Shown: positions 2,176 through 64,000 of the stretch, one piece after another
Numbering within the stretch: the stretch's first letter is position 1
How the letters are laid out: the number at the start of each line of letters is the position of its first letter
Assembly (NCBI RefSeq): GCF_006345805.1
Contig: NC_043005.1
Span: forward strand, 20,708,001 to 20,772,000
Reading direction: 5' to 3'
Source of the DNA: Octopus sinensis
Lineage: Eukaryota
Length of the DNA: 64,000 nucleotides
Notes under the pieces: model-generated
Databases searched by the model: none
The model's input: the letters and a program-made list of their open reading frames with translations, nothing else
What the model was told of the DNA's origin: nothing
Program-made: the position numbers and the translations under genes

Positions 2176-2346
2176 TGTTTTCCAAAGTGGACTGTGGACA
2201 GCCAAAAGACATTACTGGTGCTTCAAAGTCCTATAAAACCACTACCTATAAATCTAAAGTAATCTACACTTGTCCAGAAGGAGAAAAATTAAAATCGATA
2301 TGTGAAGACGACAATAAATGGACCCCAGTAGCATCTTCTTGTAAAG
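2176..2346 (+). CDS. Exon S1, Sushi/CCP domain (171 nt)
   Basis: ttccag|TGTTT...AAAG|gtaatg; [57 protein letters not shown], matching C-x-x-P...Y-x-C-x-x-G...C...W...C. Confidence 0.9.
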
Positions 2347-5300
2347 GTAATGAAAATAGGCTCTCACTTGTTGCTTGTGTCTATGTAATTTTGTTTTGAT
2401 TTTTGTGTTATGTATTTTTGTCAGAGGAAGAATTGCTGTGTCCATGACAATTTCCATTGTGATAGTGGTTGTTGGAAAAGAGAAAAGTTATCCTCAGAGC
2501 AAAGAGCACTTCAAATGCTTGCAACATTGCAACAGATTGGGCTTGTGAGTGTTACCCAAGGGCCAGATAATGCAATTAAATTGGGAGATGATTCATGTGT
2601 GCCAAACAAGCACAAGAACTGTGGAATCTTGTACCTTCCTGAAATTTCTATGGAGTTGCTATCAACCAAATTTCATGCACACGGCTCAGATGTGAAGCAA
2701 ATTCTTAAGCATGCAGACTGAACTCTACCCAATATCCCATTGTTGTTAAGCAAAACTATTATGTCCACAGTTATACCTCACTTCATCTTGACATTTTTTC
2801 TCTAATTTCTCACTTGACCTTTCTCATCCATACTTTGTGTCATCATCTAGAATTCTGTATACAGTAATCCCTTGCCATATTGCAGTACACCTATTGTGAT
2901 TCACCTATTGCAGTTCACCTATCATGGTTTATAATTTAAGCTTATGTCAATTCCTCTGTGGTGTTGTTTTGCATTTATAATAAAACAAATATATACAAAT
3001 TATAAAGTAATAAAAAAGAATATGCAATATAGTACTGTTTTTACTTCACAGATTTTCACCTATCTCAGGGGGTTTAGGAATGTAACATCCACGATAGTTG
3101 AGGGACTACTGTAATACAATGCACTGAGTTATTCTTTAATATAATTCAGAATTCAGGATGCTGTACATTTCAGATGAGATAGAAAAGGGCCAAGAAATCT
3201 GATGCTTTGCTGCACTCAAGAAAATGTATCAACCATAACAGATGTTTTAAAAATGCAAATGAAAAATAACCTGAAGTTAGAAGTCCCTGTCTTCTGACCT
3301 TTGAACTTCATCCACTGCACAACCTCTATCACTACAGCTACCAGACAGAGGAAATTTGGCTTCTTTACTTAGTTAAAGGAGGGTGTGGGGCAATCATCAT
3401 GATGGACGGATTTGTCACACACATAACAGTCACAGTTTGACATATCTTTACAAATCAGCAATGCATGGACAATGAACATGTGCATGTAAAATGGTTTTGA
3501 TGCACTGTGCACATCTTGGACAACACTGATGGCACTTCCATGACTGTAGATTTTACCTTGAACCAATTGACTTCCAAGAACTCCAGAAAGTTGTCCATCT
3601 TAGTCCCTGATCATAATCCTTGACCAAAAAGATCTTTGAAACAAACTTGGCAATTCATTTTCTTCAATGCACTGAGCATCCTTGAGAATGGTACTACTCA
3701 TTTTCTTCAGTTCACTGAGAATTCCTGAGTATTTTGGTACACTAGCTTATAACAGATTGCTAGAGTGGAACACCCACTAATTCTATTGCCGATGTTAGGT
3801 TTCATTTTGTGTACTTTATTGTTTGTAATCCTTAGGATTACATTAGATAATATGGCCATCCTTTTTTATGATAGTTGGATGGAATTGGGGGAAATTTTGT
3901 TGATAATTCTAACATGTTGGGTGCCTATATTACAAGGTCCTCCTCAGTGGCTGGCCACAGTAAATATTGAGCTTTAATATTCCAGGTTAACAGACCTGAC
4001 ACAACTCCTCCCTGCTCCTCATCCACACTATCATCATCATCATCATAATCTTCATCATCACAATCATCAATCATCATCATCATCATCACGTTTAATTATA
4101 TTGCTACCTGATCAAGGTGAATGTGGTGGACAACACTTAATCTGATGTTAATATGTCTATATATTGCAGTCAGACAACGTACCAACAGGTTGAATGGTGA
4201 TTGGCAGTGATGAAATAGAGGAGGTAAAGGAATATGTCTACCTGGGACAGGAAGTGAATATGTGCCGAGATATTGAAAAGGAGATCTCACGGAGAGTAAG
4301 GACCGGATGGAAGGCGTTTAATGGCATAAGTGATGTGCTCAAGGGAAGGTTGGACAGGACCACCCGCACCAACCTCATCAACAGTACAGCTCTACCTGCA
4401 ATGTTATATGGTAGTGAAACATGGGCTACCACTTAGAGAGAAGAGCAAAGACTGGTAATGGCTCAAAGAGCCATGGAACGGTCAATGCTTGGTATCTCGT
4501 TGAGAGAGCACATCAGTAGCGAGATCATCAGAAAGAAGTCTGAAGTGAGGGATGTCATCACAGAGTATACACGCAACAAGTTTAGATGGGCTGGACACAT
4601 TGCCCGGCTCACCGATAATCGGTGGACCCGCGCAGTTGTCGAGTGGTACCCACACGAGTGGAAACGACCATCCGGAAGGCCTCCACGACGGTGGAGTTAT
4701 GATTTCAGGAGGACAATTGGGATCACGTGGATGAGAAAGGCATGATCCAGAGAGGAGTGGACAGCATGCTGTGACCAGCGGTGTCAAATGGACGCCCGAC
4801 GGACTGGTCGGTCAAGGTTATCAAGATGATATTGCAGTACCAAATACATTGATCCACAGTTGCTAAGACTTGGCTTGGGCTATTTTAACTTCACAAGCAT
4901 TGTAGGTATTGTGGCCTGTGTGTTTCATAACATAGTTCAAATTTTTCTGTCATGATTAGCATATAAAGATGAACGTATCAGTTTGTATATACATTGTATA
5001 TTCACTGTTTTGAGACATGGCCAAACATAGTTAAAAAAAATTAATGAGATTATATGATATTTACCTCTTCTTCAAAAGCATTAACAATCTATGTACTGTA
5101 ACCAAACTTAAACACAGAATCAAACTCTGATCATTGACTTACACAACACTATCAATGTTTTTATTGACAGAACAGCTATGGGAAATAGGGTGGAGCAAAA
5201 AAATGCAACTTTTGAAATTGGTAATCAAGAATCAATATTTTGTTGTGAATTATGGTTAAAAGAAAGGTGTATAAAGAACTTTGTGGTTAGATATTTTTTT

Positions 5301-8300
5301 CAGGCTCTGCAACACAATTGAAAATTTTAAAAATCATTATTTTTGGTCAAATTTTGGATTTCATAGATTATAAGTCATAACAAATACATATTTCTACATA
5401 GCAGAATGCAAAACAGTAAATATAGTATTCTTAAGAGGTTGCATACCAAGTTTCAATACAATTGACTAATATCTTGAGGTTCCACATTGACTATAAAGAG
5501 TCTGGGAATGTGAACTTCTCACTAGTGTCACGGCAACAATTGTTGTGTGTGGATGTATGTTGTGCATGTGTAAAGTTTTCTGCTTTGTACCTTGACTTTA
5601 TGCTATTGTATTAAAATTAATGATCATGTTAAATTTAGTGTTGTTTACATTTAGTGATGATTTGTAAGTCAATAATGCATCATTATACTGAATGCCCAAT
5701 ATTTGGTACTCCATGTGATCTTAGCAAGCAAGTTTTGCCAACTTACAAGGATGTACTAAATGTGTTTTATTTCAATGAGAAAAAGAAAAGAATGTAGTTA
5801 AAGATCCTTCAATTATACAAATTGTCAAGATTGTAGCAGAAAAGATAATTCTTCTATGGCAAAAGACATCCATCCCTTGTGTCATGAGTTTGTTAAACCG
5901 AAAATTTAAAAATTTTATCTTAAGTACCAAGCATTACTAAAATCTGTGAAAAATAGGAAAAAATGTGCCATTGTTTCAAGCAAAGTGCAATGTGTTTGAA
6001 AACAATGCAACAAAAGATCTATTTAACATTTTCTTTAGCAAGTGCAATTCCTTTAACAACTGCAGTTCTATTAGAGACAAAAACGTACCACAGTGAGAAC
6101 AAGATTTTTTATAGGATCAATGGACAAATAAAAAAATGGCGGAATAGATCAAACAGTATCTAAACAACATTCAGAAGTTGATCAGAAAGAATTAACCAGA
6201 TCACACTCACCCTTCTACACCAACGAAGGATTCTGAATTGGTAGCATTTTCATCAAGCAGTGAATCTGGAAGTGGATCAGCAGGTGAAGACGAAGATTTT
6301 CCAATTCCATTTTCCATGAAACAAAAAGATGCCAGCAAAAATGTAAATTCAAAAACATCAATAAAATTAATGAAATTCCCAGAACTAGCTTCTGCCTGTG
6401 ACTGCACTGGTGTGTCAGACGGTGCTGAAGATCGGTCATCAGCAACTTAAATGCAGACTAAAAACATGCAACAGTTACTCTTCCTGGTTCATACATTTTT
6501 AGAGTTCTTAACATACTGTATTTTCCGGTCTATAAAACACATTGGGGGAATATTTTGGTCTTATCCACACATAGAGCACACCAGTGTTTAAAAGACCTAT
6601 AGAGTTATGGGTCCACAGCTAGCTTTTTTGTTGCTGACCTGTATGTAGTTTCAAAATGCCTTAATTTAGAACTATGAGATGTATTGTTATTGTTATATCT
6701 TACTAAAATCAACAACAAACACATTTTGTCAATATTAAAGTTTTTATTAGATTAAAAATAACATTATCAAAACATGAAGGTAAAACAAAACAACTTTGTT
6801 TTCTTTCTGTAGCCGTAGTCTTTCATGTTGTTCACCGACCAAACCTTTCTTTTGAAAAAATCAGTGGAATCATTCGATCTCCATACACAAATCATTTTCC
6901 TCCTGAAACTTATAAAAAATGCACACATTAGGTGCACACTAAATTTCCCAGGTAAAAAATAGCGGCTTATACACTGAAAAATATGGTACACATTGGTGGT
7001 TAACTGCTTAGGGGTAATTTTCCTAGGAGGTTGTTGCCCTTGGCGGGTTATTGTCTATGGTGGGTAAATGTCGTAGACTGGGATTACTTTCTGCATGGAA
7101 AACAAGTAGTAAAGTGGCTGCTTATTGACCCAAGATATTATGATTAATTAAAATTTTTACCCTCGGTAGTTGATAAAATCATTATGCTTATGACTTATTC
7201 TGGTCATGAGATTCAGAAAAGACAGCTCTGTAAAGTTTGAATTGTTTTGTTTATTTGCAATTCACTAAAAGTATACTTTTGCATAAATAAAAATTTCTTA
7301 GCTTGTTACATTACATTTTTAGTTCCCATTTTCTCTATATTTACAAGGTGGTATCAAAAAGTTCCAACAGATGGCAGCACATGGTTGCCTGCACTGTAAG
7401 ACCTAGCAGCGATCTTCATGAGGCAGTGTTCTGAATGACATTGCTGTGTTTAATTTGTAAATTGTAAAATTTGAGTTTTGAGATCGTGTGTATGCTGTAG
7501 CCTACAATTTAGTCATAGACAAGTAAAAAATTTTGTTTTAAATTTGGGAAGTCTGCTACAGAGACATTGAGCATGTTTTGGCAAGCTTATGGTGATGAGG
7601 CAATGGGTCATATGTCTTGTTTTGGGTGGCACTAGTGCATTAAAAGCGAAAGAATATCCCTGGAAAATGATGAGCAATCTGGAAGACCCGCAGCAAACAT
7701 CACCCCTGGAAATGTGATACTGTGGTTCAAGAATTCATTCCCCAGGGTCAGACAGTGAATTGAGAGTTCTACTGTGACATTTTGAAGCATTTGAGGGAGG
7801 ACATTCAACAAAAGCAACTGGATCTGTGGAGCACAAAGAATTGGATTCTACACAACAACAACGCATCCTGTCACTGAGCTCTCCTCACTCATGAGTTTCT
7901 AACCAAAAACAGCACCCACCCTATTCACCAGATTTAGCACCTGCAAGCATCCATCTCCTCCCCAAGATGAAAATGCAGCATAAAGTTGCCATTTTAACAC
8001 TATTGTTGAAATCCAGAGTGAATTGCAGAAAGTTCTTGACTAGCTTACAGAAAATTTCTTGCAGGCCAGAGTCCATAAGTGGTAGAAATGCAAGATGACT
8101 ATTTCGAAGGAGATGATTTCAAATGTTGCATAATCACTCAAGTCAGGTCTTGCAGTTACTAGCCATATTTAGTTATCTTCTTTTATATTCTGGATTCAAA
8201 GCTCATCTGATTATATTTACCTTCCATTATTGGGAGATTAACAAAACTAGCACTAGTCAAGTACTGAATTCATTTATTCATATGCATTCTCAATGCAAAA

Positions 8301-11300
8301 TGCATGGCTTTGTGTTTGTATTAGAAACCATTATTGTAAATATTGTTAATATCAACAATAATTATATTTCTTGTTAAGGGTGCTGTATTTACAGAATCAT
8401 TAGATCCTCAGACAAAATGTATGGTGGTATTTGTTATGGCACTTCAGCTTTTGATTTCAAATCCTACTAATGTTAATTTTGCTCTTGCAGGGCCAGTAAA
8501 TTAAAATAACAGTTAAGTGTAGAGGCATATTTGATTAACTTCTACCTAAAATTTTTGCCCTTTCTATATTAGAAATTATTATGATTGTTATTGTTTTTGT
8601 CTTTTATATTCATCTAAATCTTACTTCAATTTCAGTCACTGCGATGCATTTTGTGAAAGTCACAGATGCAATTCTGGATGTAGCCGGGAAATCATTGGTT
8701 GAGGAAAATGTAACCACAGATGCCTGTGCTGAAAAATGTTTGTCTGATCCAAATTGTTTAGCATTTGAAATAACTAAAAGAGGTGGAAAATGTTACTTAA
8801 CAAATAAAACTGCAGCCTCCACCAAGAAAGTGAAGTCAGACAAAAGCAGAGATTATTACCAACGAATAGAACGTAATTATTCTTTGTATTTTATCATTGG
8901 ACTTCTTTTTCCTCTTTTTCTAAAATTTGTAATTCCATTTGTACTTTATAGTGTATAGACAACCATTTCTGTAAAGACATTGACAGGTTTACCTATGAAG
9001 GCAGGCATAGGCATGTTCCTGAGAAAGAAAAAGAAATATTAGTAACTGTAAATACTGTGAGGGCAATCTCATACAGACTTTGTTCATCTTGAACAATTTT
9101 ATGCATGTTTACAATCCATTGTTTTATGTCAGAAATTAAATTCTTGTTGTTTGCCTTAAACCTGAATAATTGCATCAGCTGTAGTGGCAGTAGTAGTAGT
9201 AGTTTCAAATTTTGGCCAAATGACAGCAGATTGAGTCAATGTTAATTGATACAATCAAACCTAATTCTTGTCTGGTATTATATTGTATCAACCCTGAAGA
9301 AATGAATGGCAGTGTTTGAGCTTATAATGTAATGAGCTGGAAGGAATACCACAATGTGACATGGATCTACACATTATCATACCACTAGTTGTTGTTCATC
9401 TGATATACAAAATATCAGGAAAAGAGATGCCAGTTGATGAAGTTGCATATCTCCTATAAATTAGCATTGTTACTAGGGCTGGGTATCCTTTCTATCACTA
9501 ACCATTATACCACATATAAAGAGTACATTTTATCATGCTTTTGGAGTTAGAAAAGTTCTCTGCAGTAACTGAAGAAATCACTCAACATAAAATAAGTTCC
9601 TATTCAGAATAGTTCTATGATTTAAAAACAAAATGTTTAACAATTTCACCCACTTTGATTAGGAGGATTTTTTTTACCTTTCCTATCAAAATCCTTCCTT
9701 CTCAAAACCCTGGATATTGGGAAATTTGCTAGGTGTAGTGATTTCTCAGTATATATATGAGGAACTATAATTCGTCTAAAGTCACAGACTCCTCTGCGGT
9801 ATTCTGGATACTTTCAACAAATTTAAGTACATTTACAGCTCAGGTTTATACAGAGACAGTTATCTAGCAATTTCATGTCATGTAAATAGCCATATCAAAA
9901 ACAGATTAAGGTAAAAATTTTATTTTTAAAAAATGATTGTTACCTTGTTACCAACAGTTGTTAGAACGATTGTTAACTACATTTGACTAAGTGGACATTA
10001 TTTTAGATTTGAAGTACATTTTAGATACTGTGATTTGAAGGTATGTAAATAAAATTGATTTTACCTCAACTTGTAATCGGGTATTGCTGGCAGATAGATC
10101 AGTTCCTTACCCGTGTTGTCACAATCTCTGTATCTCTATGATTGATGTCTGTCACTGCTAGCATCCCAAGGAAAAACAAATCACAGGGAAAAACTTTTCT
10201 TCTCACTTGCCGATGTGACATCATCTGTTGTTGCTTCAGGTCTTCCTTCCACCATATACCCCACTGATCCAAAGATCACTGCTCTCCTGTTTTGTCTCGT
10301 AATTGTCCATCCACCTGGTGTGGGGAAAGATGGGGTGGGCGATGCTCCCTTAGAGATCTCCGTAGGGTCTCAGGGCTGCCTTCCCCCTCCTCTTCATCAT
10401 TGTAAGAGCTAATCACCCTTCAGATATCCAGGACGTGACACAGCATTCCATCCACTGATACATTATTCAGAGTACTGATCGCTGTCACCTTTCCTTTTTC
10501 CACTACGTTGTGCACTGAGAATTCGGGGTTTCAACCACCTGCACAAATGTAATCCCTTCCACCTCTTGCTGCTGCAGCACAACGCACGGGTGTCTCCATT
10601 TCTACCAGAATATGGCCCTGTGCGGGAACGACTCTTTGGCTTTCTCTACCCAAGGTAACATATTATATTAGAAGCCTGCCTCCATTGGGGAGGTTCATCC
10701 CCTCTCAGCCATGGCTTTAATCATACGCTGGTGCCGTCCCACAATCCCATTTCCATTTGGTCTGAATGCAGCTTTGAAGAAGTGTCTTGTGCTCCATTTT
10801 CCAAGCATCTCTCTCAGCTACTGTGAGTGAAAAACTGCTGTTATCCATCAGTAGCTCATTTACAGACCTCATTTCCAAAAACATCTCATTCGGCACCTCT
10901 GCGACCTTGGCAACAGTCTCTGCCCTGATTTCTTTCCATATAGCCATTCACCCCAGTCCACAGTCGACCATTTCAAGGTACACCTTTTCCCAGTAGTATG
11001 TCACATCAATGACTAGCCTCTTCTATTCTTACTTTACCTAAATCTTTCCTAGTTCATGTGTGTTTGGGACAGGATTGATTGGCACCTGTTGCAGATCCCC
11101 ACTATCCTCTGAAAGCTCTCCCTTGTGACATCAGGGTTGACCATCCTAGCCAAAAACAATATCTTGTTGACCTCCATATGGTGCCTGTTGTGCAGTCTCC
11201 TTAGTTCTGTGCCCTCCAGCCAACAAACTGCTACCACCCCATCCAGAACATCCTCTACTGTTTCCAACCAATACTGTTTCACTCTGGTTAGAACACCTGC

Positions 11301-22421: not shown

Positions 22422-22457
<36 letters not shown>

Positions 22458-24158
22458 ATACACACACACACACACATGTGAAAGCTTGACTGAAATGAAG
22501 CTAGTATGCTTTGCTGGATGTGCAATGTCATTGTGCATGTATGACAAAGTGTGAGCATCTTAAGAGAAAAATTAGGGATAAGGGGCATGAGATGTGGTGT
22601 CCAAATGAGACAACTGCAATGGTATGGTCATGTGAAGCATATAGATGAGGACAGTTGCATAAAAAAGTACTGATATCTAACTGTGGAGGGAACCTGTGAA
22701 AGAAGTAGACCCTAGAAAATAAGGACAAGATGGTGAAGCATGATCCAACTAACCCATGCCAGCAGGGAAAGAAGATACTAAATGATTTTGATGATGATGA
22801 TGCTATAGTTAGGTAGATAAATAGACAAATAGATGGATATGTGTGTGTTTGTGAGTGATTTAATAAAATACAGAAAACAATTTGCATTTTGATTGTTAAA
22901 AATTACAGCGATTATAAGCTAAACAAGCACACGCATGTTTACTCACACACACACATGTAGATACATATAAGTTATTGATATCTCTATATATATAAAACTG
23001 AGAATGTGTGTGTGTCTGTCTGTTTGTCTGTCTGTGTGTTTCCCTAAAACGTGAGAACTACACAACCAATTTCATTCAAATTTTACACATGCCTTACTTG
23101 GGGTCCTGGGAGTGTCATTGGCAAAAGAAATTTTTAACTTTTTGCCTAGAGCGAGCCCACAGCAATATCATATCTCTCACTACGATTCCCCAATATAATA
23201 TTCATTGCATTGTGGGCATGTGATACAATATATCAGATTTTTGCTTTTGCAGTTCACATTTGCATTCACCTTCAATTCTTTTCCCAATCTCTACACTAAG
23301 AAGAAAAAAACACTCACACTGAGGATAAATGGAAAAATGGACTTAAAAATATCCTATTTGTCATCACTTACAATCCCAAGAACCACATATTCTACAAATA
23401 GCCAAACACCTTCTATGAATTCTACACCAGTCCCCATGTCTCTGACAAATAATCAACAGCCAAAGACAACCAGCAGGTCTTAAGAAACTTCTAACCAAAG
23501 CAAGATTTGCATCAGAGGAAGAAATGATGCAAGTTACCAAATGTAGAGACCCCCAATGTGGGACATGTGATCTAATAGAACAGAGACCAGCCAAAAAATT
23601 CAAGAATGGAAAAGAATTAAAGATGAATGCAAATATGAACTGTAAAAGCAAAAATCTGATCTATTGTATCACATGCCCATGATGCAATGAACATTATACT
23701 GGGGAAACGTAAACTAAACTAACCAACTGTGTAAATGTGCATACACATATATAAAACATCCCGTACTTAGATGCATAACATCATTTGAACACCTGTGCAG
23801 AAGGAAAATTTACAATTTTCATTCTTCATAAAAAAAATGAAGAGAACAACCGTCCCTGGAGGGGTAAAAGAAGAATATTTCATAAAATTTCTGATTCTGA
23901 AACTATACCAGAATTAGTCAACAACAATTTTACTGAAAACAACTTCCACTATATATAATAACATGTGCTTGAAAACATTAAGAAATGAAAGTGTTTGCAC
24001 ATCTATAAAAGCACAACCTACACATTTTGTGAAACCTTTTCCCAAAGGTTAGTATTTTTCCAATTTCTAGAAAGGTTCTTTTCTCAGTTTTAATTCTTTT
24101 AGAAAAAAATCTTCTCTCCAAATATATATATATATATATTTATGCATATGTATGTATG

Positions 24159-24228
<70 letters not shown>

Positions 24229-24423
24229 TCGTCTGGCACCCGTGCAGGTGGCATGTAAAAAGCACCCACTACACTCACGGAGTGGTTGGCGTTAGGAAGG
24301 GCATCCAGCTGTAGAAACACTGCCAGATCTGACTGGGCCTGGTGCAGCCTTCGGGCTTCTCAGACTCCAGTTGAACTGTCCAACCCATGCTAGCATGGAA
24401 AACGAACGTTAAACAATGATGAT

Positions 24424-54500: not shown

Positions 54501-54658
54501 TTAGATACAAGTACGCTGTATCTTGTATGTCTTATTCTTGCTTTCAATAAAAGCTTGCTAATTCGTATAGCGACATCTATTTATATTTCATGCATACAGT
54601 CTCTCTCTCTCTCTCACTGTATTTGTCTCTCAACAACAACCTATCAATGTAGTGAAAG

Positions 54659-54690
<32 letters not shown>

Positions 54691-57600
54691 GAGGTGGGCA
54701 TTGTTAATTGAAAAATTAACTTCGTTCAGCATGAAACCATTAATTCTTTGCAAATTTAACAGAAGTTAACTTCAATCCATTAAAATTAGCTTTCATTGTA
54801 AAAGGCATATCTACAGTTTAATACCTCACTGACTGTGTTGCCTCATAACTTCCAGAGAAATAGAAACTTTCTAATGAAACTTAATTGCTTATAACCTGTA
54901 GATTGGGTGGTGAAGATTTGTTGGAAACAAATTTTTTTAGGGGTTGGAGAGAGGAGTTTCAGAAAATTCACAGGATCCGACATTTTCCCGTTCATCACTT
55001 CCTGGAAAATAGGATGTTTTAACAAAATTTTATAGAAATACATTTTAAACGGTGTAGATTACAATTGCAAAGAAATATATTGGTAAAACTTTTGAAAGAG
55101 GCTGGAGGGATGGGTGTAATTTCTGGAAAATGGAGTTTTGAATCATACAGCCCATACAAGTTGGAAGTTCTCCGTTTTGATGGGGAATTCTTCAAATGTT
55201 TTTCACCAAAGTTTTCAGAATGATGGGAGGCATCTTTTCATGGAAAAGAAGAAAAAGATTTTAAAAATTTATTTCCTTTCATTCCCACCACTCCAGTCTG
55301 AAATGATTTGGGTCATTTTTCTTTTTCACTACACACTTGAAACCTGTGAGAGAAACATTTTCAGTTTAAAAGAGAATTGTAAATAATTTGAGAGGAGAAA
55401 GAGTAATTTAAGGTAGATCAAGCTGTTGTTTCTAGTACATACTAAAACCCCCCTTCTCGTTTCTTTCTCCCCCACACATCTATTGATATTTTTCTGCCCA
55501 TAAACAAATCTTATGGAATGATGATGTCAAAGTAACAGAAGTGTAGTCCCAACCAAGTGAAGCCGTGCTATGTGTGTAAGGGCAAAAAACACCTAAAATC
55601 ATCTTTAGTGTTCATGTTAATCTATCAAAAGTAATGCTTATTTGTTTGTTATTCTGAATTATTCAGGTTCAAGAGGGTTGTTCTCAATATTTGTTTGTAA
55701 CTTTGTACATGCAGATTTGAAATTTTGTCATGCGGATTTGAAATATGGTTTATAATTATGTAAATTTAGCTGATCTTGCTGAGCAAATTTGACTTTCATG
55801 TGCAGTTAAAATTAATTAACAGGTGTAAAAGAAATAGCATTATGGATAAACACTAGAATTGAAATTCTTAATGCATCTTACCTGTTTGATTTGTTACTAA
55901 AATGATACCAGATTGCAACTGACAAAATATTTGCCGCTTTTAAAGATGAGGTACTTATATTTGAATCAATTGAAATACAGATATAATCAGTACAAGATTT
56001 TATGCTTTCAGGAAATATTTCATACCTTATTGAGGAATAATTTTTTCCTCAGATTTTTTAGGGTGCATTGAATGTATCTGACCTCCAAACGTGCTGCAAG
56101 TCACATTTTTACGGAACAGAGAAGAAGGAAGGGTAGAGGGGACCATGTTATTTTGCATCCTTTCAATGAAAGTGACATCGAAGTCACGCGTAAACAGCTT
56201 TTTTTCCAGAAAAGGAAAGATTTTGCTGCTCTTTCTAGTGTACCTTCTACCATGCTACAACGAAATATTTACCAACCTTTTTCCTTCCATTTGCTTTTTA
56301 TGGAAGTTGGACCTCAGCGAGGTCACAGATCAAGTGGATAGACATCAATCACTGTTCCCTCTTGACAGAATAAAGAAATTTCCTGCTGTCTTTGCAAGCA
56401 GCAAGCTGATGGTTTTGGTTTCAAATCCAGGCAGGGCTAAATGATGTTCTACACATCTTTTATAATAATAAGTGGCCTATATCAGGGTTGAAAGGATGGT
56501 ATATACAATATTAAATATGCTAAAATAATCTGAAAACATTAGAAACTTTTAAATGTTCACTGGTTCTCTTGAAATTTTTGGGTTAATGGACTTGAGTTAA
56601 CAGAAGTCAAATGTAGTGGAAGTTAATTTGTCCGATAAAGATTTTCAAAGTTACCTTGAAAGTTAAATTGCTAACTTCGTTAATTAACAATTCATGAATT
56701 AACAGACTAACACCCAGTTCTGTATATATATATATATTGCACCAGCATTACTTGGGGTAGTGATGACAGACCAAATATATATACAGCAAGAGACTGAACA
56801 TTAATTTTATACCAGTGTTTTTGTAAAACCATCGCTACATTTGATCATACACATTGTTTATGTCAACAGGATAATTTTTAAGTTAATGAGCCAATAGAAC
56901 CTCATTCAAATTTGGCTACTTGCTGGTTTCTCTCCCTTTCTCGCTGTCATAATTATAGTATCGATTACTATATCTAGTGGTAATATAAACTAAATGTTTC
57001 AAAACCATGATTATTTTTAATCTCTGGTGAATCTCCCATCAGTGAGATGTGCATATCAGATGCAATGAAAATATCTTTGCAGGTTGTTTTGGAAAAACTG
57101 CATCCAGTAACTATCTCCATTATTTTGTTGAGTGCTTAGATGCTGCCCAAACGCCCTACACCTATGGTTTCTGGCAGTGAACCTGCTGGATATGTTCCAG
57201 AAAGGTAACAGTTATGCTGCAGTAGGTCACTGCTATGTTGTCAACAAAAGCACCATAAGCTACATAAAGTAAAACAAGGTGGCAAAAAAGGCTATCGTAG
57301 CAGTAATTTTCTGTGGAAGTGTCAAAAGATATCGATAGTGAGAAATAAGAACTTTGTTGGGATGGAATCTACCTTGGCATTGTGGCTGCAAGAAGAAAAA
57401 CATCCCCTTGAGCGGTAAGATCATCAGTGAGAAAGCATGGAAATTATACCAGCAGTTCAACAGAGAATACAAAGCAGAAGATACTGAAGAACTGTGACCA
57501 AGACCATTGGCAGTATTAGAACCCGAAGATTTTCAAACCAGCAAGGTATGGTTTGACCATTCCCAGAAATGGTTTAAAGTAAAGTGTTTCCCTGAAAAGA

Positions 57601-59368
57601 GAGAGACCATCAGCCAACAAAAATACCACTAAGAAGTAACATTAGACCTTCAAGTAATCATCAGGGACAAGGGTTACAAGCCAGATCGAGTTTTCAGTGC
57701 AGATGAGACTGGCTTGTTCTGGAAGAAGATGCCTTCCAGAATGTACATCATGAAGGACGAAGCCAGAGCCCTAGCATTTAAGGCACAGAAGGACAGAGTT
57801 ATGCTAATTACGTGTGGCTATGCTGCTAGCTTCATAATGAAACCAGGACTTATCAAAAAGTTTGTAAACCCAAGGTCTTGAAAAATGAGAATAAAAACCT
57901 GTTGCCTGTCCACTGGATGCAGAGCCCAAGGCCCAGATTACCAAAAGTCTAACTTTGAATTGGTTCCACCAAATGCTTCATCTCTGAAGCCAAGGAATAC
58001 CTCCAAAATTTTGCATGCAATTCAAGGTGTTGCTTGTTATGGATTATGCTGGTGGTCACTCTTTGGATTTGAATTATGAGGGAGTTCAAGTAGCGTTCCT
58101 CCCTGCCAACACCACCTCTCATCAAGCCTATGGATCAAGGATGATCTGTGCTTTCCACACTCTCTACACACAGAACACTCTCCAACAATGGATTCGGACA
58201 AGAATTTCTAGTTAAAGGAGTATTGGTGTAACATTTTGATTGCAGTGTGACTGTCAGTCATCCACATTGCTCTTAAAGACATGGAAAATGAAAATCTCAT
58301 CTCATGCTGGAAGAAAGTGTGGCCAGAGTGTGTCGAGGACTACGAGGGCTTCTCACCTGAAGGTATTCAACATGAGATTGTGAACAATGTCGTGAAACTG
58401 GCAAAGGTACCTAGTGGTCACAGTTTTGCTGACATCACAGAAGAGGAGGTCAACGACCTCATCAATGCCTACTCTGAAACCCTGACAAACAAAGATTTAT
58501 TGGAGTTAATGAAATCTACCAGTGAGGAGGAAGTAGAAGTGCCAGATACAGAGGAAGAGGAAGAGGAAGATGGGCCTGCCAATTGAACGTCTTCTGACCT
58601 ATTAAAAACAGCAAAGGAATTGCAAGTGAAGGCAGAATCATGGGATCTCTATATTATTCAGTCTCTCCAATTTAAAAATACCTTTGATGCTTCTATAGAG
58701 ATATATAAAACTCTCCTGAAAACCATGAAGAAACAACAACAGCAACTTCCCATCACAATGTTCCTCAAGGCCACAAAGAAAGCCTTGCACAAAGATACAA
58801 CATCCCCCTAAAACACCTGAAGAAGAGGTGTCTCATGAAGAGTTTTAAATCTTGTTTGCTGTGCAGTCATTAAATTCATTATTTTCATCATCATCGTCTT
58901 AAATCAATATCATTCATTATTGGTGAGTAACAATAAATTTTACTTTATTTAAAAAAAAATTATTATTAAATATATATATATATTTAAAATATTTTACGTT
59001 ATATTTTGATGTTTATAAGCATTTTTATGGAGCACATCCAATATTCACAGTTTCACAATTCGTGGGTGCTCTAGGAACATAAACCCCACGAATACTGGGA
59101 GAATACTATATATATATATATATATATATAGTCAGTAGTTCATGTATCCAGACTTACAGTTGTAATGTATATATTTTAGGAACTCAAAAGTTATGGCTGT
59201 TCATAGGGTGTCTTGTTTTCGCACCTATAAAGTACTTAGGAGTAGAAGTGACTAGCCACACTCAAATGGTTGAAGGTGTGCATTCAGATACCTTAGCTCC
59301 TTCGCCTTTAGCCACTCCAGTCAGAAGAGTTGCCTATGCTACTAAGCACTTTAAGGTGCAAAACCAAT

Positions 59369-59408
<40 letters not shown>

Positions 59409-62400
59409 GAAAGAAAGAGAGACTAAGATTTATTAATATATACAGTATTTAAATGTGAGCTAGTTTTAATTTCAAGCTGATATCCAAATACTCTGTAAAT
59501 TTGAAGTTAGTTACCTCTCACTGGACAGAGGACATACTTTGTTGATGCTACTAATAATGGAACTATAAATTGTATTTATATATATTTGTGTGGGTGTTTG
59601 GATTTGTGCATGTGTTTGCATACACACACATATTTTTACATATGCGTTATATATAAAGACATATGCACAAAGATATGTGTATATCTATACATGTAGTTAT
59701 ATATATATATTGGGTCATTGCATAAATAATGGTCTCTTTTTTCATACTTCTTTTATATTTCAAAATTAAGAGAAAGTTCTTTTTCTATCTAAAATATACT
59801 CTCCTTCAGCTTGTAAATTTGCAAGGCCCGTCTTCCAAAATTCACTTTTCTGTGACAAAAGATACTCCTCCAGTACTGTTCTCACCTCATCCACAGAATG
59901 CATAACTTTTCCATCCAAATGACTTTGAAGATTTTGGATTAACTGATCATCAGATTGGGTAATGTCTGGTGAATACGGTGGCTGGGGCCTCATTTCCCAT
60001 TCAAGCTGCTCCAACCTTTGGAATGTCATCCTTATAGTATGTGGGTGAACATTTCCCTGATGGAAGAACACCTTTCGTCTTGAAATCCAAAACCATTGTT
60101 TTCCATCTAGCGCTGACTTAAGCCGCTCAAGCTGTTCATAGAAGTTCTCCTTTGTTATCATTTGCTTTGGGTTTAAAAGTTTAAAGTGGACTAAACCTTT
60201 CATATCACGCCAAACATAACAACATTTTATGTGGGTGAAGACCTTGTTTAGCTTAGGGTACTGGTGTTTCTCCTTTCCCTATCCCTGGTCTTCAGCACTT
60301 AACATTTTTATAGATAACCCTTTTCTTGTCTCCAGTCATATTCAGTCCAAAGAAGGTTCATTCGTGAGGCATGACAGCAAACAGCACACTTTTACTCTCT
60401 GAGTGCAATTACTCAGAAAGTTTGTGTAGTACCCATTGACCCAATTTGTTGAATTTTCTAATGGCCTGCAAGTATCACTGACTGGCTGAAGAACCAAATC
60501 CAAATTTATTTGCTTGTTCCTCAACTGTTACAATGGGATTTTGTTCCATTATGGTTTGCAGGATGTCCCCATATGTAACTGTAATTAGTGGGGCCCTGGG
60601 ATATGTAACACACTCTCTAAATACCAATCTTGCAAAATTAGGCTTGTCAAAACCAGGAAGGAGAAAGCCAATTTGAAGACTACAGATCCAATCCATCATT
60701 GGAACAGTAACAATCTGTAAAACTTTCCTGAAGTTTATCATTTAAATATATATCAACATGTCTAAAAATGCAAGTATATGCATGAGAATACATGCATAAA
60801 ACAAAACATATGAATCTGCACATATACATACATTCACACATACATACAAACAAAAATACCCAGTTGTTAATGTTGAAATTCCAATGAAGGAGTCTTAGAT
60901 CCAAGTCAGAAACTGGTTCTTTCTCTGTTGGCAAGAAATCTTGAAATAAAACTTAACAATGACATACATAAATATATATATATGCCTATTTCTGTCTGTG
61001 TACATGCTTCTTCAGTGTGTTTCAGTCAATATCTTTATTCTAAATTTGTCATTATCGCCTCATCCTTACACTTCTCCTAACATATAATTACCATTGATAC
61101 CATCTTCTCTGTATCATTTCCAGTGTTATCCAAAGTGGACTGTGGACCACCAAAAGACATTGCTGGTGCTTCAAAGTCCTATAATAGCACTACCTATAAA
61201 TCTCAAGTAATCTACACTTGTCCAGAAGGAGAAACATTAAAATCGAGATGTGAAGATGACAATAAATGGACTCCAGTACCATCTACCTGTAAAGGTAATG
61301 TAAAGAGGCTCCCTCTTGTTGTTTCCAACTACATTATTTTTTTTTGTGTGTGTGTTAAGTGTTTTTGTCAGAGGAAGAAATGCTGTGTCCATGACAATTT
61401 CCATTGTGAATTTCACTGTTGGGAAAGATAGAAGTTAATGTCAGAGCAGAAACCTCTTCAAATGCTTGCAAGAGTATCGGCTTTGTGAGTGTTACTCAAA
61501 GGGAGGATGATTCATGTTGTGCCAAACAAGCACAGGAAGAGTGGAATCTTGTCCCTACCTGAAATTTTCATGGAGTTTTCATCAACTAAATTTCATGTGT
61601 AAGGCTTAGATGTGAAGCAAATTCTTAAGCACAGAGAACCCTGCGCAATATTCCATTGTTTTTAAGCAAACTATTATGACCACAGCTATAACTCAGCTCG
61701 TGTAATTTTTTTCTCTAATTTCTCACTTGACTTTTCTCATCCATACTTTGTGTTATCATCTATTATTCTGTACAATACAATGCACTGAGTTTTTTTACTA
61801 GAATTCAGCAATCCTCTGAAACAGACTTCCGATGCTCAAGTGATATTCTATCCAGTCCATAATCCTAAATTATAACAACACAAATAATAATAATGATTCT
61901 TTCTAATTTGGGAAAAGAAAGCCAATAATTTTCTATATGTTGTAGATTAAGTTCCATTTTGTTGTTTTCGTATAGATTATTGGTTTGAGGATGTATCCAT
62001 CGGTTACAATATAATTAAGTTGACTAAATATGTTTGGGTGTGTGATATGTATATGTCTTCCAATTAAACGAAGTCCTTTTTGCATCCTGCTGTTGGTAGA
62101 ATGAAAAGAAAAGTCAAATTCATTTTTGTGGAGAAATGTAAAAATGATGAGTTACAAAGACAGTTTCAACGAATTCTCTTTTTATTTCAAGGATATATGC
62201 TATTACATGTAAATACATCAGGAGTAATCTCTCTTCGTCAGTGAAAGTAACTTGAAGAGTATCATATTGTAGAATGTTATTTCTAGGTTTTCGTCTAAAA
62301 GTTTGTCCATAAAGAAGTGAAAGGAATCATATTGCTTATCAAGTCCATTGAAACTACACTTGAGAAAGAGTTTAGCTTTATGACTTATGGTCATTATTGA

Positions 62401-64000
62401 GAAGGATAACGTCTTATGTCATTAGTAGAAGAATGTCAAAATTCAACAAGGAGTGTATGTGAGTTTCAGTGACATAGCTTCCCAAAGGCAAACTATCCAC
62501 TTATTAAAATCAGAAAAAATATCATGGTTTTTATAACTTCCCATGGAAATTTCTAGAAGCGTTCTGAAATATGATTTAAAATAATTTAGGCTAAAATGGA
62601 GAATGATTTTGGATGAAATCTATAGCGGTTGTCGTTGGCTGTTCAAGTGCTTGTTATTAAATGGAAAAACAGCATGAATCATCATAAGACACTTTTGTGT
62701 ATAAATATATTGATTATTCTGTGTTCACCTTTTGTGGTGGAAGCCTGTAGTATGATACAAAAACATGTCTGTTTATATAGAAAGAAAGTTTTGATTTTTG
62801 CTTTTGCACTGAAAGAAGTAACATATAACATTTGTATTACATTATGTTTGCATGTGTAGAATGAGAACAGTCATTTTGAGAATGTGTTTGTGATAAAGTA
62901 TCTTCATTTACGAACCGCATATCTTGTGTCGAGGTGAATACACATGTGAGTCGCACGTGGAATATTGTGTGCAGAGCAACAGAGAAGACATTTGTCTTTG
63001 ACCAAAACCTGGCAGGAACTTAGATCTTCTACTGTGTAGCTCAGAACGAGGCTGGTGTCTCAGAACAAGGCTAGTGTATCAAAGCAAGGGTAGTTGTCTC
63101 ATCGATATATTCGTCTGCTGTGTAGGTCAACTTACATATTACCACGTAATATGTAGATTTGCTACAAATATTTTTAGCCAATGAGAGAACTTGTAGATTT
63201 TGTTTAGTTGTAGATTTTGTAAGCCACCAAATAAAAAGCCTTTACTACAAATCGATGCCATTTAGTGAGTATCATCAACTCCAGTTCTTCACTAATATTT
63301 TATGCTTTTGACCTCTGCAAGAATGAAAGGCAAAATTGATACTGGCTGGATTTAAACTGAATACATGAAATACTTGAATACAAATCTTAAAGCATTTCTT
63401 TCAATTCTGACACCAACTTGTGTAGTTTTCCACTCAAAATGAAAGTGAATTTGTATTTGGTTTGCAGGGCAAAATGTTACATAATCAGTAAAGTAATGTC
63501 TTGCAGTGACTAGCCATATATAGTTACCTTCTTTTATATTCTGGATTCAAAGACCATCCGGATATATTCACCTTTCATTATTCAAAGGTTGATAAAATTA
63601 GGCCTAACCAAGTACTGAGTTTCATTTATTCATATTCATTCTGAATGCAAAATGTGTGGCTTTGCATTTGTATTAGAAACCATTTTCATAAATACTGTTT
63701 TTATCCACAATAATTATAATTATTCTTGTTGCTAAAGGTGATGCATTTGCAGAATCCGAGAACATCAGATAAAATGTGTGGTGGTATTTGTTTTGGCACT
63801 TCAGCTGCTAATTCCAATTCCTACTGATGTTAATTTTGCTATTGCTGGGCCAATAAATTAAAATAGCAGTCAAGCATAGAGGCCATATTTTGTTGATTAA
63901 CTCATACCTCAAAATTTTGTCCTTTCTAAGTTAGAGATTATTATTATTGTTATTCTTTTTGTCTTTTACATTCATCTAAATCTTACTTGAATTCCAGTTG
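2176..64000 (+). CDS. Multi-exon gene (internal part only) for a large, probably extracellular protein made of Sushi/CCP-PAN-PAN repeats
   Basis: 14 exons with canonical AG/GT boundaries, all lengths multiples of 3 and phase 1-1; they join into one stop-free 970-codon frame with conserved Cys patterns and N-glycosylation sequons. 5' and 3' ends lie outside the window. Confidence 0.88.
2862..3111. mobile_element. pogo/Tigger-type MITE
   Basis: TA-flanked TIRs CAGTAATCCCT...AGGGACTACTG; the paralogous site near 61770 is empty. Confidence 0.85.
4171..4828 (+). mobile_element. 5'-truncated RTE-clade LINE (second family) with 10-bp TSD
   Basis: [36 protein letters not shown] motifs; ATATTGCAGT at 4161-4170 and 4829-4838. 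Confidence 0.88.
5186..6450 (+). mobile_element. Decayed DNA transposon 5' portion, hATm-like (tentative)
   Basis: Begins TAGGGTGGAGC; fragmented frames [37 protein letters not shown]; family assignment from recollection only. Confidence 0.45.
6516..6986. mobile_element. TcMar/pogo-type MITE
   Basis: TA-flanked imperfect TIRs CTGTATTTTCCGGTCTATAA / TTATACACTGAAAAATATGG. Confidence 0.7.
7343..8122 (+). mobile_element. Internally deleted mariner remnant
   Basis: TIR CAAGGTGGTATCAAAAAGTTCC; [11 protein letters not shown] motif near 7915-7945; same family as 40872-42113. Confidence 0.75.
8636..8872 (+). CDS. Exon A1, PAN/Apple domain type A (237 nt)
   Basis: tttcag|TCACT...GAAC|gtaatt; [15 protein letters not shown]...[30 protein letters not shown]...RDYYQRIE; CxxxC..CxxF..CxL and DYY motif of PAN domains. 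Confidence 0.9.
10029..12672 (-). mobile_element. Rearranged, deleted Gypsy-type LTR retrotransposon
   Basis: GATAC TSD (10024-10028 and 12673-12677); LTR 12368-12672 bounded by TG/CA; minus-strand RT ([15 protein letters not shown]), RNase H ([21 protein letters not shown]) and integrase (HNRHH..C..C) remnants. Confidence 0.82.
13236..13469 (+). CDS. Exon B1, PAN/Apple domain type B (234 nt)
   Basis: ctccag|CAAAA...CCAG|gtcagt; [16 protein letters not shown]...[31 protein letters not shown]...WDVYIVNP. Confidence 0.9.
13628..13662 (+). ncRNA. Degenerate minimal hammerhead ribozyme motif in a small Penelope-like insert
   Basis: gttt-CTGATGA-agag ttcc gctc-GAAA-cat t-aaac; stem III/cleavage region degraded. 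Confidence 0.5.
13775..14252 (-). mobile_element. 3' end of the RTE LINE family seen at 232-1679
   Basis: Reverse complement of the LINE tail and its ~60-bp tandem repeats; (CAT)n at the left end. Confidence 0.85.
14305..14985 (-). mobile_element. Older, related RTE 3'-UTR/tail copy
   Basis: (CAT)n followed by ttaacgtctgctttccatgctggcatgggttggac and degenerate tandem repeats. Confidence 0.75.
15060..15778 (+). mobile_element. Remnant of an RLE-endonuclease non-LTR retrotransposon (R2/R4-like 3' region)
   Basis: CRLC..EDT...SSCP zinc knuckle, RHD motif and [10 protein letters not shown] endonuclease motif; frameshifted; same family as 35075-35940. Confidence 0.65.
16083..16253 (+). CDS. Exon S2, Sushi/CCP domain (171 nt)
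   Basis: atcag|GTTTT...AAAG|gtaaca; [57 protein letters not shown]. Confidence 0.9.
18298..18537 (+). CDS. Exon A2, PAN/Apple domain type A (240 nt)
   Basis: ctctag|ATGCT...AAAT|gtaaat; [58 protein letters not shown]...RDYYQRVK. Confidence 0.88.
20260..21222 (+). mobile_element. Decayed mariner transposon
   Basis: IVT..K.W-like, [10 protein letters not shown] and YSPDLA.SDYHLF motifs in broken frames. Confidence 0.72.
21568..21798 (+). CDS. Exon B2, PAN/Apple domain type B (231 nt); absent from the ORF track
   Basis: tttcag|CTGAT...CCAG|gtcagt; hand translation [77 protein letters not shown]. Confidence 0.9.
21902..22805 (+). mobile_element. Two RTE LINE 3' fragments separated by microsatellites
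   Basis: gagggaacctgtgg...aggaagacctgggatgaggtggtgaagcatgac matches 920-1000; (GAT)n tails near 22415 and 22795. Confidence 0.8.
22981..23185 (+). mobile_element. Probable Helitron-type 5' end
   Basis: a|TCTCTATATATATAAAA followed by a (GTCT)n microsatellite, as in non-autonomous Helitron 5' ends. Confidence 0.45.
23186..23910 (+). mobile_element. Penelope-like element remnant (GIY-YIG endonuclease) with an inverted partial copy
   Basis: [10 protein letters not shown]...[18 protein letters not shown] at ~23540-23708; reverse-complement copy at 23186-23284 reads [14 protein letters not shown]. Confidence 0.72.
24226..24425 (+). mobile_element. Short RTE-tail/SINE-like insertion within a (TA)n tract
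   Basis: Matches 1475-1679. Confidence 0.8.
24479..24823. repeat. Near-perfect palindrome, 170-bp arms with a 5-nt loop
   Basis: 24479-24648 is the reverse complement of 24654-24823 with one mismatch seen; loop TGAAG. Confidence 0.93.
24680..24722 (+). ncRNA. Minimal type I hammerhead ribozyme (mirror copy on - strand at 24580-24622)
   Basis: ccac-CTGAAGA-ttgtc gatcaa gacaa-GAAA-cgattg-TA-gtgg: stem I ccac/gtgg, CUGANGA core, 5-bp stem II, GUA cleavage triplet. Confidence 0.75.
24895..25358. repeat. Long compound (TA)n microsatellite
   Basis: About 460 bp of TA with TG/CA interruptions; further tracts at ~24120-24225 and ~25560-25935. Confidence 0.95.
25359..26712. mobile_element. CR1/L2-like LINE 3' ends: + strand copy at ~25937-26365 between two arms of an inverted duplication (~25359-25706 and ~26366-26712)
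   Basis: ORF 26017-26289 [34 protein letters not shown]; (AAGGATTT) tail; the arms are near-identical reverse complements that include microsatellite sequence. Confidence 0.8.
26746..27832 (-). mobile_element. 5'-truncated RTE LINE, same family as 232-1679
   Basis: ORF 27342-27659 nearly identical to 604-1068; same tail and (CAT)n. Confidence 0.9.
27868..28897. repeat. Large inverted repeat (~440-bp arms) built from a 482-nt head-to-tail monomer; Penelope pLTR/retrozyme-like
   Basis: 27870-28310 mirrors 28356-28796; the 45-nt spacer reappears reverse-complemented at ~28797-28837, then the right arm restarts at 28838 (period 482). Confidence 0.9.
27999..28105 (-). ncRNA. Type I hammerhead ribozyme with palindromic stem III and long loop II
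   Basis: Minus strand: cttta-CTGATGA-agtgt...acacc-GAAA-cgatgcatcg-TA-taaag; the + strand copy (28561-28667) has GAAA changed to AAAA. Confidence 0.75.
28924..29150 (-). mobile_element. Probable Helitron 3' end
   Basis: Minus strand reads catgggcaacgccaggtaactctgCTAG|t: subterminal hairpin remnant plus CTAG; upstream extent uncertain. Confidence 0.55.
29960..30830 (+). mobile_element. Decayed pogo/Tigger (CENP-B-like DDE) transposase
   Basis: [59 protein letters not shown] motifs. Confidence 0.8.
30945..31150 (-). mobile_element. tRNA-derived SINE; related older copies at ~9200-9350, ~43400-43600, ~43690-43830, ~63310-63410 and upstream of each A exon
   Basis: Minus strand has B-box-like GTTCAAATTCC followed by gactttgcctttcatcc...aagtaccagtt...actggggtcgatgtaatc. 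Confidence 0.72.
31539..31590 (-). ncRNA. Minimal type I hammerhead ribozyme
   Basis: Minus strand: gtct-CTGATGA-agcgatatt attaatt aatatccta-GAAA-cagctg-TA-agac; palindromic stem III, GUA triplet, stem I gtct/agac. Confidence 0.75.
31949..32119 (+). CDS. Exon S3, Sushi/CCP domain (171 nt)
   Basis: ttccag|TCATC...AAAG|gtaatg; [57 protein letters not shown]. Confidence 0.9.
32680..32919 (+). CDS. Exon A3, PAN/Apple domain type A (240 nt), very Lys-rich
   Basis: tttcag|TCACT...AAAC|gtaatt; [58 protein letters not shown]...KDYYQRGK. Confidence 0.9.
35075..35940 (+). mobile_element. RLE-type non-LTR retrotransposon remnant (R2/R4-like)
   Basis: [47 protein letters not shown] motifs. Confidence 0.72.
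36155..36388 (+). CDS. Exon B3, PAN/Apple domain type B (234 nt)
   Basis: ttctag|CCAAT...CCTG|gtcagt; [16 protein letters not shown]...[31 protein letters not shown]...VDVYITNP. Confidence 0.9.
37540..38290 (-). mobile_element. Decayed RTE LINE RT fragment
   Basis: [31 protein letters not shown] (RT core). Confidence 0.75.
38600..39745 (+). mobile_element. Decayed RTE LINE RT-to-tail fragment
   Basis: [19 protein letters not shown] and [11 protein letters not shown] motifs followed by the family tail. Confidence 0.75.
40872..42113 (+). mobile_element. Near full-length decayed mariner
   Basis: TIRs GAGGTGATATCAAAAAGTTCC / GAAACTTTTTGATACCACCTTG-TA; ITSDES.V and [17 protein letters not shown] motifs. 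Confidence 0.85.
42191..42361 (+). CDS. Exon S4, Sushi/CCP domain (171 nt)
   Basis: ttccag|TTTTC...GAAG|gtaatg; [57 protein letters not shown]. Confidence 0.9.
44722..44892 (+). CDS. Exon S5, Sushi/CCP domain (171 nt)
   Basis: ttacag|ATTTT...AAAG|gtaatg; [57 protein letters not shown]; an in-frame alternative acceptor is possible at 44731. Confidence 0.88.
45108..46330 (-). mobile_element. Old RTE-tail-bearing element with a purine-rich body; a similar element lies on + at ~36510-37470
   Basis: (CAT)n plus tail motif at 45108-45310; low-complexity body. Confidence 0.5.
48773..49009 (+). CDS. Exon A4, PAN/Apple domain type A (237 nt)
   Basis: ctctag|ATTCT...AAAT|gtaatt; [58 protein letters not shown]...RDYYQRVK. 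Confidence 0.9.
49505..50458 (-). mobile_element. Decayed mariner transposon
   Basis: [26 protein letters not shown]-like and [11 protein letters not shown] motifs; TIR-like end TTGGGTTGGT near 50457. Confidence 0.72.
50850..53060 (+). mobile_element. L1/Tx1-clade LINE ORF2 remnant (APE endonuclease to RT start), interrupted by a solo LTR
   Basis: [42 protein letters not shown] and KFLAKVL motifs. Confidence 0.75.
51238..52131. mobile_element. Solo LTR (894 bp)
   Basis: TGTAGTGGA...TCCACTACA inverted termini; 4-bp TSD CATA (51234-51237, 52132-52135); splits the L1 WKFNA coding stretch. Confidence 0.82.
53888..54118 (+). CDS. Exon B4, PAN/Apple domain type B (231 nt)
   Basis: ccccag|CTGAC...CCAG|gtcagt; [57 protein letters not shown]...WDVYLMSP. 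Confidence 0.9.
54235..59107 (+). mobile_element. pogo/Tigger transposon (transposase remnant at ~57140-58850) with nested insertions
   Basis: [47 protein letters not shown] motifs and an acidic C-terminus; Tigger-like termini; left boundary approximate. Confidence 0.72.
54689..56722. mobile_element. Nested DNA transposon, hAT-like (tentative)
   Basis: Imperfect TIRs CAGAGGTGGGC / ACCCAGTTCTG with GTTAAC/TTAAC subterminal repeats at both ends; inserted in (TA)n. Confidence 0.55.
59710..60560 (-). mobile_element. mariner transposase remnant
   Basis: ORF 59766-60203: [21 protein letters not shown]; TIR TTGGGTCATTGCATAAATAA after (TA)n. Confidence 0.85.
61124..61294 (+). CDS. Exon S6, Sushi/CCP domain (171 nt), close paralog of S1
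   Basis: ttccag|TGTTA...AAAG|gtaatg; [57 protein letters not shown]. Confidence 0.9.
61900..63100 (-). mobile_element. Possible highly decayed Penelope-like remnant
   Basis: Minus-strand fragments resembling [14 protein letters not shown]; absent from the paralogous S1-A1 intron; weak. Confidence 0.35.
63998..64000 (+). CDS. Start of the predicted next exon A5 (PAN type A), cut by the window edge
   Basis: 63490-63997 aligns with the intron just upstream of A1 (8140-8635) and ends in ...ttgaattccag|. Confidence 0.7.

Follow-up and report, generated by a model that had tools for sequence, protein, structure and literature searches.

A 1.63-Mb array of Sushi and PAN exons in Octopus sinensis may encode a giant secreted chain, probably derived from a short salivary gland protein

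The closest described relatives of the locus analysed here are short proteins of coleoid cephalopods. GON-Abd-1 of Abdopus aculeatus (UniRef R4G2C1), which Ruder et al. (2013) reportedly were the first to describe, from transcripts of the venom gland, its orthologs, and GON-Sep-2 of cuttlefish are built from the same signal exon, micro-exon, PAN-A, PAN-B, Sushi and four GON exons as the octopus gene. While the GON-Abd-1 type is an expressed protein of 465 aa with one repeat unit, the giant gene has about 101 units and about 23,500 aa, as predicted from DNA. Its C-terminal GON domain (Pfam PF08685) is also common to ADAMTS9, ADAMTS20 and GON-1, and it is the GON domain alone that accounts for the database name “ADAMTS-like”; an ADAMTS protease was rejected, since neither reprolysin (M12B) nor TSP1 occurs in the short gene or the terminal model (database proteins P0009 and P0013), and the fragments contain only Sushi (S), PAN type A (A), PAN type B (B) and GON domains. 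The PAN fold is shared with Toxoplasma MIC4, Sarcocystis SML-2, the N-domain of HGF and plasminogen, and factor XI/prekallikrein, but, unlike these, the octopus gene has Sushi spacers and about 200 PAN copies, with no kringle or protease domain. SVEP1/polydom, from which other fragments derive their “SVEP1-like” names, has many Sushi modules; it was rejected because vWA, EGF, pentraxin and HYR domains are absent from the Pfam lists of P0014-P0019 and, again, because no uncovered segment of the models is long enough to hold them and real SVEP1 proteins match at only 21-27%.

In overall design the nearest parallel is Drosophila Dumpy, which shares no domain with the octopus gene but, like it, is a megadalton extracellular chain with a three-module unit and a super-repeat; Dumpy is membrane-anchored through a ZP domain, whereas the giant gene has no anchor and ends in GON. 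Passages of PMC10895422 describe Dumpy as a protein of 2.5 MDa with an EGF-DPY-EGF unit, a higher-order super-repeat and 78 coding exons, as compared with about 337 here, one per domain. Judged from DNA only, the predicted chain of 23,513 aa has the attributes of a Dumpy-like class, namely a megadalton secreted chain, repeated modules and super-repeats. Titin and PKZILLA-1, both intracellular, belong to the same size class, and both are larger; they are unrelated in sequence to the octopus protein, which is predicted to be secreted. PKZILLA-1 (45,212 aa, about 25% larger than titin) also escaped annotation, according to part of 10.1101/2024.01.29.577497.

The window, i.e. the whole 64-kb stretch of DNA that was analysed, lies in the interior of the giant locus, of which it makes up about 4%. 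Its exons were located by a six-frame scan combined with tblastn using the window's own exons, and carry the numbers given to the 336 exon matches along contig C9. All are on the plus strand, and coordinates are those of the window; unless otherwise stated, they rest on Pfam matches and splice sites.

1..64000 (C9:20,708,001-20,772,000), plus strand: window, interior of the giant locus, exon matches no. 57-71
2176..2346, plus strand: Sushi exon no. 57, 171 nt, phase 1-1 (Pfam; 98% to O. vulgaris model P0171)
8636..8872, plus strand: PAN type A exon no. 58, 237 nt
13236..13469, plus strand: PAN type B exon no. 59, 234 nt
16083..16253, plus strand: Sushi exon no. 60, 171 nt
18298..18537, plus strand: PAN type A exon no. 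61, 240 nt
21568..21798, plus strand: PAN type B exon no. 62, 231 nt
31949..32119, plus strand: Sushi exon no. 63, 171 nt
32680..32919, plus strand: PAN type A exon no. 64, 240 nt
36155..36388, plus strand: PAN type B exon no. 65, 234 nt, closing the 13-exon super-repeat no. 53-65
42191..42361, plus strand: Sushi exon no. 66, 171 nt, leading member of the SS pair with which super-repeat no. 66-78 begins
44722..44892, plus strand: Sushi exon no. 67, 171 nt
48773..49009, plus strand: PAN type A exon no. 68, 237 nt
53888..54118, plus strand: PAN type B exon no. 69, 231 nt
61124..61294, plus strand: Sushi exon no. 70, 171 nt
63998..64000, plus strand: PAN type A exon no. 71, first 3 bases; the exon continues to window-equivalent 64234 (locus L052)

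A previous sequence-only reading of the window had proposed 14 complete symmetric exons adding up to 970 codons in the order (SAB)x3, SSAB, S(A), with every cysteine kept. Indeed, all 14 are preceded by AG and followed by GT, are in phase 1-1 and have lengths divisible by 3; their sum is 2910 nt, or 970 codons, the same order was recovered, and each carries 4 Cys. The Pfam check that it called for placed 14 of 14 above the curated cut-off, with all six S exons recognized as Sushi/CCP (PF00084) and all eight A and B exons as PAN_1 (PF00024), in agreement with the predicted fold, and the exons were found to continue beyond both window edges, as it had expected. Its picture of introns full of transposons held in part: among 10 intronic ORFs scanned, one matched a DDE_1 transposase (window 30416-30661) and one a PHD finger (236-547), the latter sitting in what we take to be a LINE remnant, while the other eight matched nothing at the cut-off. 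Skipping of exons without a frameshift, which it had suggested, is formally possible, and no pair of exons within the window creates a stop. The intron after exon no. 62 also contains a 371-nt inverted repeat (window 25339-25709 and 26362-26732, 99% complementary, 652 nt apart) adjoining a long AT microsatellite, which may be a recent inversion-duplication, a foldback element or an assembly slip.

We searched the 2.72-Gb genome with one exon each of the S, A and B types. Matches on C9 comprised 129 S (of 129), 103 A (of at least 111) and 104 B (of at least 109), the A and B counts being lower bounds from the 150 candidates scored; weak A- or B-type matches also occur on C13 (18.85-19.18 Mb and 64.9 Mb), C17, C3 and C6. 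All 336 matches on C9 lie on the plus strand between 20.347 and 22.050 Mb, and neighbouring pairs are almost exclusively AB (102), BS (100), SA (100) and SS (29), with only four others, so that the recurrent unit is (S)SAB. The first three matches, separated from the other 333 by an 85-kb gap, belong to the short paralog described below. Removal of two decayed extra copies (no. 165 and 168) leaves 331 array slots, consisting of 128 S, 101 A and 102 B. A 13-exon super-repeat, SSAB-SAB-SAB-SAB, occurs exactly 13 times, and identity between units is maximal at a lag of four units, with an excess of 0.077 and 0.119 as compared with maxima of 0.018 and 0.032 in 2000 shuffles. No additional S, A or B exons were found in the array introns scanned, 181 of 330 of them whole; the shortest array intron separates A no. 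332 from B no. 333 (L017, C9:22,034,705-22,035,331), and its length of 132 nt is a multiple of three and stop-free in frame, so that its retention would preserve the frame.

The array locus spans C9:20,437,578-22,070,114 in assembly G000, i.e. 1,632,537 bases (about 1.63 Mb). At its 5′ end, an ATG at 20,437,578 opens a 55-nt phase-1 exon resembling a signal peptide, followed by a 30-nt micro-exon, both with proper splice sites; the signal peptide call is based on homology and inspection. At its 3′ end, four GON exons with matching phases lead to a stop at 22,070,114. The coding sum is 70,539 nt in 337 exons, equivalent to 23,513 aa and about 2.66 MDa, a DNA-based prediction in which five frameshifted slots enter with nominal lengths. 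Thus, the long Sushi-PAN-PAN repeat announced by the sequence-only reading is real, but that reading missed its scale (about 331 repeat exons over 1.63 Mb), its C-terminal GON domain and a known short paralog. Of the two forms that it had considered, the secreted one gained support from the signal exon found by extending beyond the window, while the cell-surface one was not supported: no hydrophobic stretch occurs in 328 repeat exons, in which the highest 19-residue hydropathy mean is only 1.38, and the gene ends in GON and a stop, so that a membrane-anchored form was rejected.

The short paralog lies 71 kb upstream of the array on the same strand and encodes 465 aa with a single unit:

C9:20,341,798-20,366,748 (L006-L008), plus strand: short paralog, with a signal exon, a 30-nt micro-exon, A, B, S and four GON exons

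It is the ortholog of GON-Abd-1, with an O. bimaculoides ortholog XP_014778328.1. The region upstream of the first array exon is colinear with its 5′ region; DNA of the signal exon and micro-exon matches the genome at two places only, the short gene and the start of the array, and the GON domain of database fragment P0004 likewise at two, downstream of the short gene and of the last repeat.

This distribution of terminal exons bears on whether the locus is one gene or, as annotated, a tandem cluster of several separate genes. Annotations of O. bimaculoides, O. vulgaris and O. sinensis each give several models here, splitting the array into “uncharacterized”, “SVEP1-like” and “ADAMTS-like” proteins, the longest of which, among those returned (search range up to 7,496 aa), has 6,537 aa. 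However, these models begin or end inside domains or run into intron sequence, at places that differ from species to species, and GON occurs only in the last model. When the six terminal exons were profiled, each profile being made from its two copies in the short gene and the array, no third copy was found in the 773,271 of 1,632,537 locus bases scanned (181 of 330 introns whole, no N), a search for internal starts and ends that covered about half of the locus and thus leaves the cluster some room. With start and end exons seen only at the two ends, we consider a cluster very unlikely and are highly confident that the locus is one gene; the present multi-gene annotations are likely wrong.

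The exons are well preserved. Open slots with AG/GT and phase 1-1 number 326 of 331, comprising 325 standard exons and no. 144, a short atypical B that is atypical in O. bimaculoides as well (81%). The remaining five (no. 23, 83, 149, 308 and 335) contain one-base frameshifts; one-base indels at such a rate are a typical residue of long-read assemblies, and O. vulgaris models show an open domain at four of these slots, no. 23 being without a counterpart in the models compared. The latter may represent a truncating allele or an obligatory skip. No stops arise at consecutive exon junctions across the array, and there are no in-frame stops in the 325 standard exons, as against about 174 expected under neutral change on the terminal branches of the exon trees; on the same branches, neutrality would have cost about 184 of the 325 exons a cysteine. 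The C, C, C, W, C pattern of Sushi domains is retained in at least 90% of 125 copies, and 4 Cys are present in all but one of 102 A exons and all but one of 103 B exons. For reciprocal closest paralogs, dN/dS is 0.55 in S (21 pairs), 0.78 in A (16) and 0.70 in B (13). The lack of stops and these ratios indicate that frame and fold are under constraint, with much of the surface free, and the ratios would suit a structural chain and diversifying binders alike.

The five frameshifted slots, the two decayed extra copies and the lack of giant-gene expression in the RNA runs and proteome tables examined would be in keeping with an array that is silent and decaying, or with a short gene multiplied by faulty assembly. 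We give this almost no credence: in-frame stops are absent where about 174 would be expected, exon pairs at least 95% alike are few (5, 6 and 4 by type), so that the copies are not assembly duplicates, the same order is found in other assemblies, and the DNA examined contains no N. The decayed copies, at C9:21,314,658 and 21,326,775 (L104, L105), consist of a partial A and a scrambled B beside intact exons, and provide an internal control for the rate at which unused copies decay.

Comparison with other species shows array order to be conserved across three Octopus assemblies. In O. vulgaris, five models together run in order through exons 39-131, exons 146-336 and GON, including most window exons, with 224 exons at 95% identity or more and the last model ending in GON. 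Seven O. bimaculoides models contribute 226 domains with a median identity of 82-87% (86-88% for the short gene in the same comparison); P0003, P0001, P0025, P0017 and P0004 map cleanly in array order, and P0006 and P0014 less cleanly owing to recent block duplications. O. vulgaris has extra in-frame exons: one A lies between no. 315 and 316, one S precedes no. 308 and a block follows no. 240; the O. sinensis introns at these sites (C9:21,974,533-21,980,639, 21,935,284-21,939,973 and 21,655,847-21,661,297; L182, L183, L198) lack counterparts, indicating that unit number differs between assemblies or species, through either a copy-number difference or a collapsed assembly. Ten single-exon database proteins, two of them traced to Logan, match array exons at 60-76%, which suggests that the array is present in further octopods. 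In protein database searches close relatives came from octopods only, as the sequence-only reading had anticipated in proposing an undescribed lineage-restricted repeat; among the hits, those from cuttlefish were limited to short PAN-Sushi-Sushi-GON and Sushi-GON proteins, and those from gastropods were short GON proteins. A protein atlas gave as a lead a mollusc PAN/Sushi cluster at 0.88. Neither the array nor any of 12 accession and locus names is described in the literature searched, which lay outside subscription journals, and passages of PMC4280546, PMC7656900, PMC12607849 and 10.64898/2026.04.09.716377 make no mention of the array. The gene is real, under selection and restricted to octopods.

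What one gene makes of so many exons is less certain. The balance tips slightly towards a single 1.63-Mb gene with a predicted mRNA of about 70 kb, whose product, secreted and rich in disulfides, would be about 23,500 aa long and act as a very long multivalent binding scaffold. The same gene could instead serve as a cassette library, in which splicing would join constant signal and GON exons to a single S-A-B block, or a few, out of about 100, to give a large set of short secreted isoforms of varied specificity, in the manner of variable-constant designs such as Dscam and the clustered protocadherins. Since every repeat exon is in phase 1-1, nearly any jump keeps the frame; a single unit with GON makes a working protein, as the short paralog demonstrates; the units are diverse (mean identity 58%, 58% and 46%), their dN/dS is relaxed, and RefSeq model P0016, identical to O. 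sinensis genome exons, leaps blocks of 3-23 exons, twice exactly 13. Such jumps, however, can arise by cross-mapping between near-identical blocks. Dscam-type cassette genes cluster like alternative exons, whereas the S, A and B exons of the array are interleaved and not grouped as alternatives; moreover, conservation of order and super-repeat phase between species suggests that neighbours matter, and most models in the two other species follow long consecutive runs (57 and 93 domains). On this evidence we regard a cassette library, in which the choice would be made block by block, as the leading alternative, possible but rather doubtful, and slightly prefer joint use of most array exons in long transcripts. 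Symmetric exons may also let one gene produce a giant chain alongside very many shorter, rearranged binders of the same family.

RNA and protein data were examined for signs of expression. A search of sequencing runs listed no match in a run recorded as RNA. In four probable RNA runs (X1, X2, X5 and X9), checked on window 2100-22000, repeats dominate the cover, with short interspersed repeats at window 13388-14715 extremely deeply covered by contigs in all four, and no joint between window exons appears among the 15 joints listed of 226 for these repeat-swamped runs. Run X1 has one unspliced 116-letter contig piece inside exon no. 59, and unique intron pieces are similarly deep. By comparison, a contig from run X5 with a depth of 935 joins the micro-exon, A and B exons of the short gene, which is shallow in X9. 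In Table S1 of PMC7693380, the protein group of the short gene has 18 peptides and 43% coverage in O. vulgaris posterior salivary gland, and the one giant-gene accession searched is absent from the examined part of the same proteome table; the examined parts of the supplements to PMC10138644, PMC9712504 and PMC12607849 contain no giant-gene matches.

The structure model of an S-A-B-S segment has a mean pLDDT of 75 and a pTM of 0.49, indicating folded domains whose relative placement is uncertain. The A-domain model matches plasminogen and HGF PAN domains with Z of 13.1 and 13.0 and rmsd of 1.6 and 2.3 Å over 77 and 82 residues, the S model matches complement CCP modules at Z 4-6, and in a sequence search of solved structures the tandem apple pair of Toxoplasma MIC4 scores best (E 2.8e-6). 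True apple domains have six Cys and three disulfides; a domain of the factor XI type was rejected, the PAN exons carrying 4 Cys as in HGF and plasminogen. Mean net charge is +7 in A, +2.6 in S and about 0 in B, and there are about 260 N-glycosylation sequons and no RGD in array exons. A single isolated HExxH string occurs in 328 exons, and no protease domain was found in the exons and models of the predicted giant protein examined, which with its signal peptide, PAN/Sushi modules and terminal GON has the coleoid PAN/Sushi-GON architecture. The GON domain of P0009 (residues 245-436) is modelled with high confidence, most blocks being above 90, and the beginning of the domain matches the fibrillar collagen C-terminal family at a sub-threshold score; a fold search with the short-gene model, in which the GON part was weakly probed, listed no solved structure covering GON. 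Other octopod database proteins join PAN pairs to reprolysin-TSP1, VWD-C8-TIL-VWA or WSC domains, and with such varied partners the PAN pair looks like a mobile module.

PAN modules elsewhere bind glycans, heparin or proteins, and Sushi and PAN modules are 3-3.5 nm long. By analogy with its domain family, each PAN pair could form a glycan- or protein-binding head, with Sushi modules as spacers between heads, and the basic A domain would bind polyanions, as the HGF N-domain binds heparin. About 100 heads on a chain of about 1 micrometre would confer high avidity and might cross-link a gland secretion or an extracellular layer into a gel or matrix. The non-catalytic GON domain may aid ER export of so bulky a cargo; part of PMC3338439 attributes to GON a role in ER-to-Golgi transport in ADAMTS9 and GON-1 that needs no protease activity. 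Only tentatively do we propose, from these analogies, that the exact role is that of a multivalent cross-linker with PAN heads in a gland secretion or extracellular layer. The chain might also be a polyprotein, cut after secretion into separately acting S-A-B units or blocks, to which its lysine content (14% of residues) and the abundance of serine proteases in the gland of the paralog, reported in part of PMC7693380, would lend themselves. Nevertheless, only 3 of 328 exons contain a furin-type motif, the domains follow one another directly, with no linker exons, and no conserved cleavage site was found, making this quite improbable in comparison with an intact scaffold.

As to origin, the giant gene was probably born, to judge by the shared exons, through duplication of the short gene followed by internal duplication of exon blocks, which the phase 1-1 exons would have made easy; single units would have been duplicated first and 13-exon super-repeats afterwards. 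We see about even chances that, in this way, a 465-aa salivary (venom) gland protein became a gene of 337 exons and 1.6 Mb that annotations have split; its secreted chain, at about 23,500-24,000 aa, would equal or exceed Dumpy in size and might be the largest soluble secreted animal protein.

It should be kept in mind that split annotations prevent expression and proteome studies from seeing the locus as one unit. If made whole, the product would join a handful of proteins above 2.5 MDa, as one that is secreted without an anchor, and would raise the question of how cells splice about 336 introns, fold about 660 disulfides and export the product. If the locus is a cassette library, it would be a new source of binder diversity in cephalopods. 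In the locus, the growth of a short gland protein by exon-block duplication within octopods can be followed in a clean, dated record.
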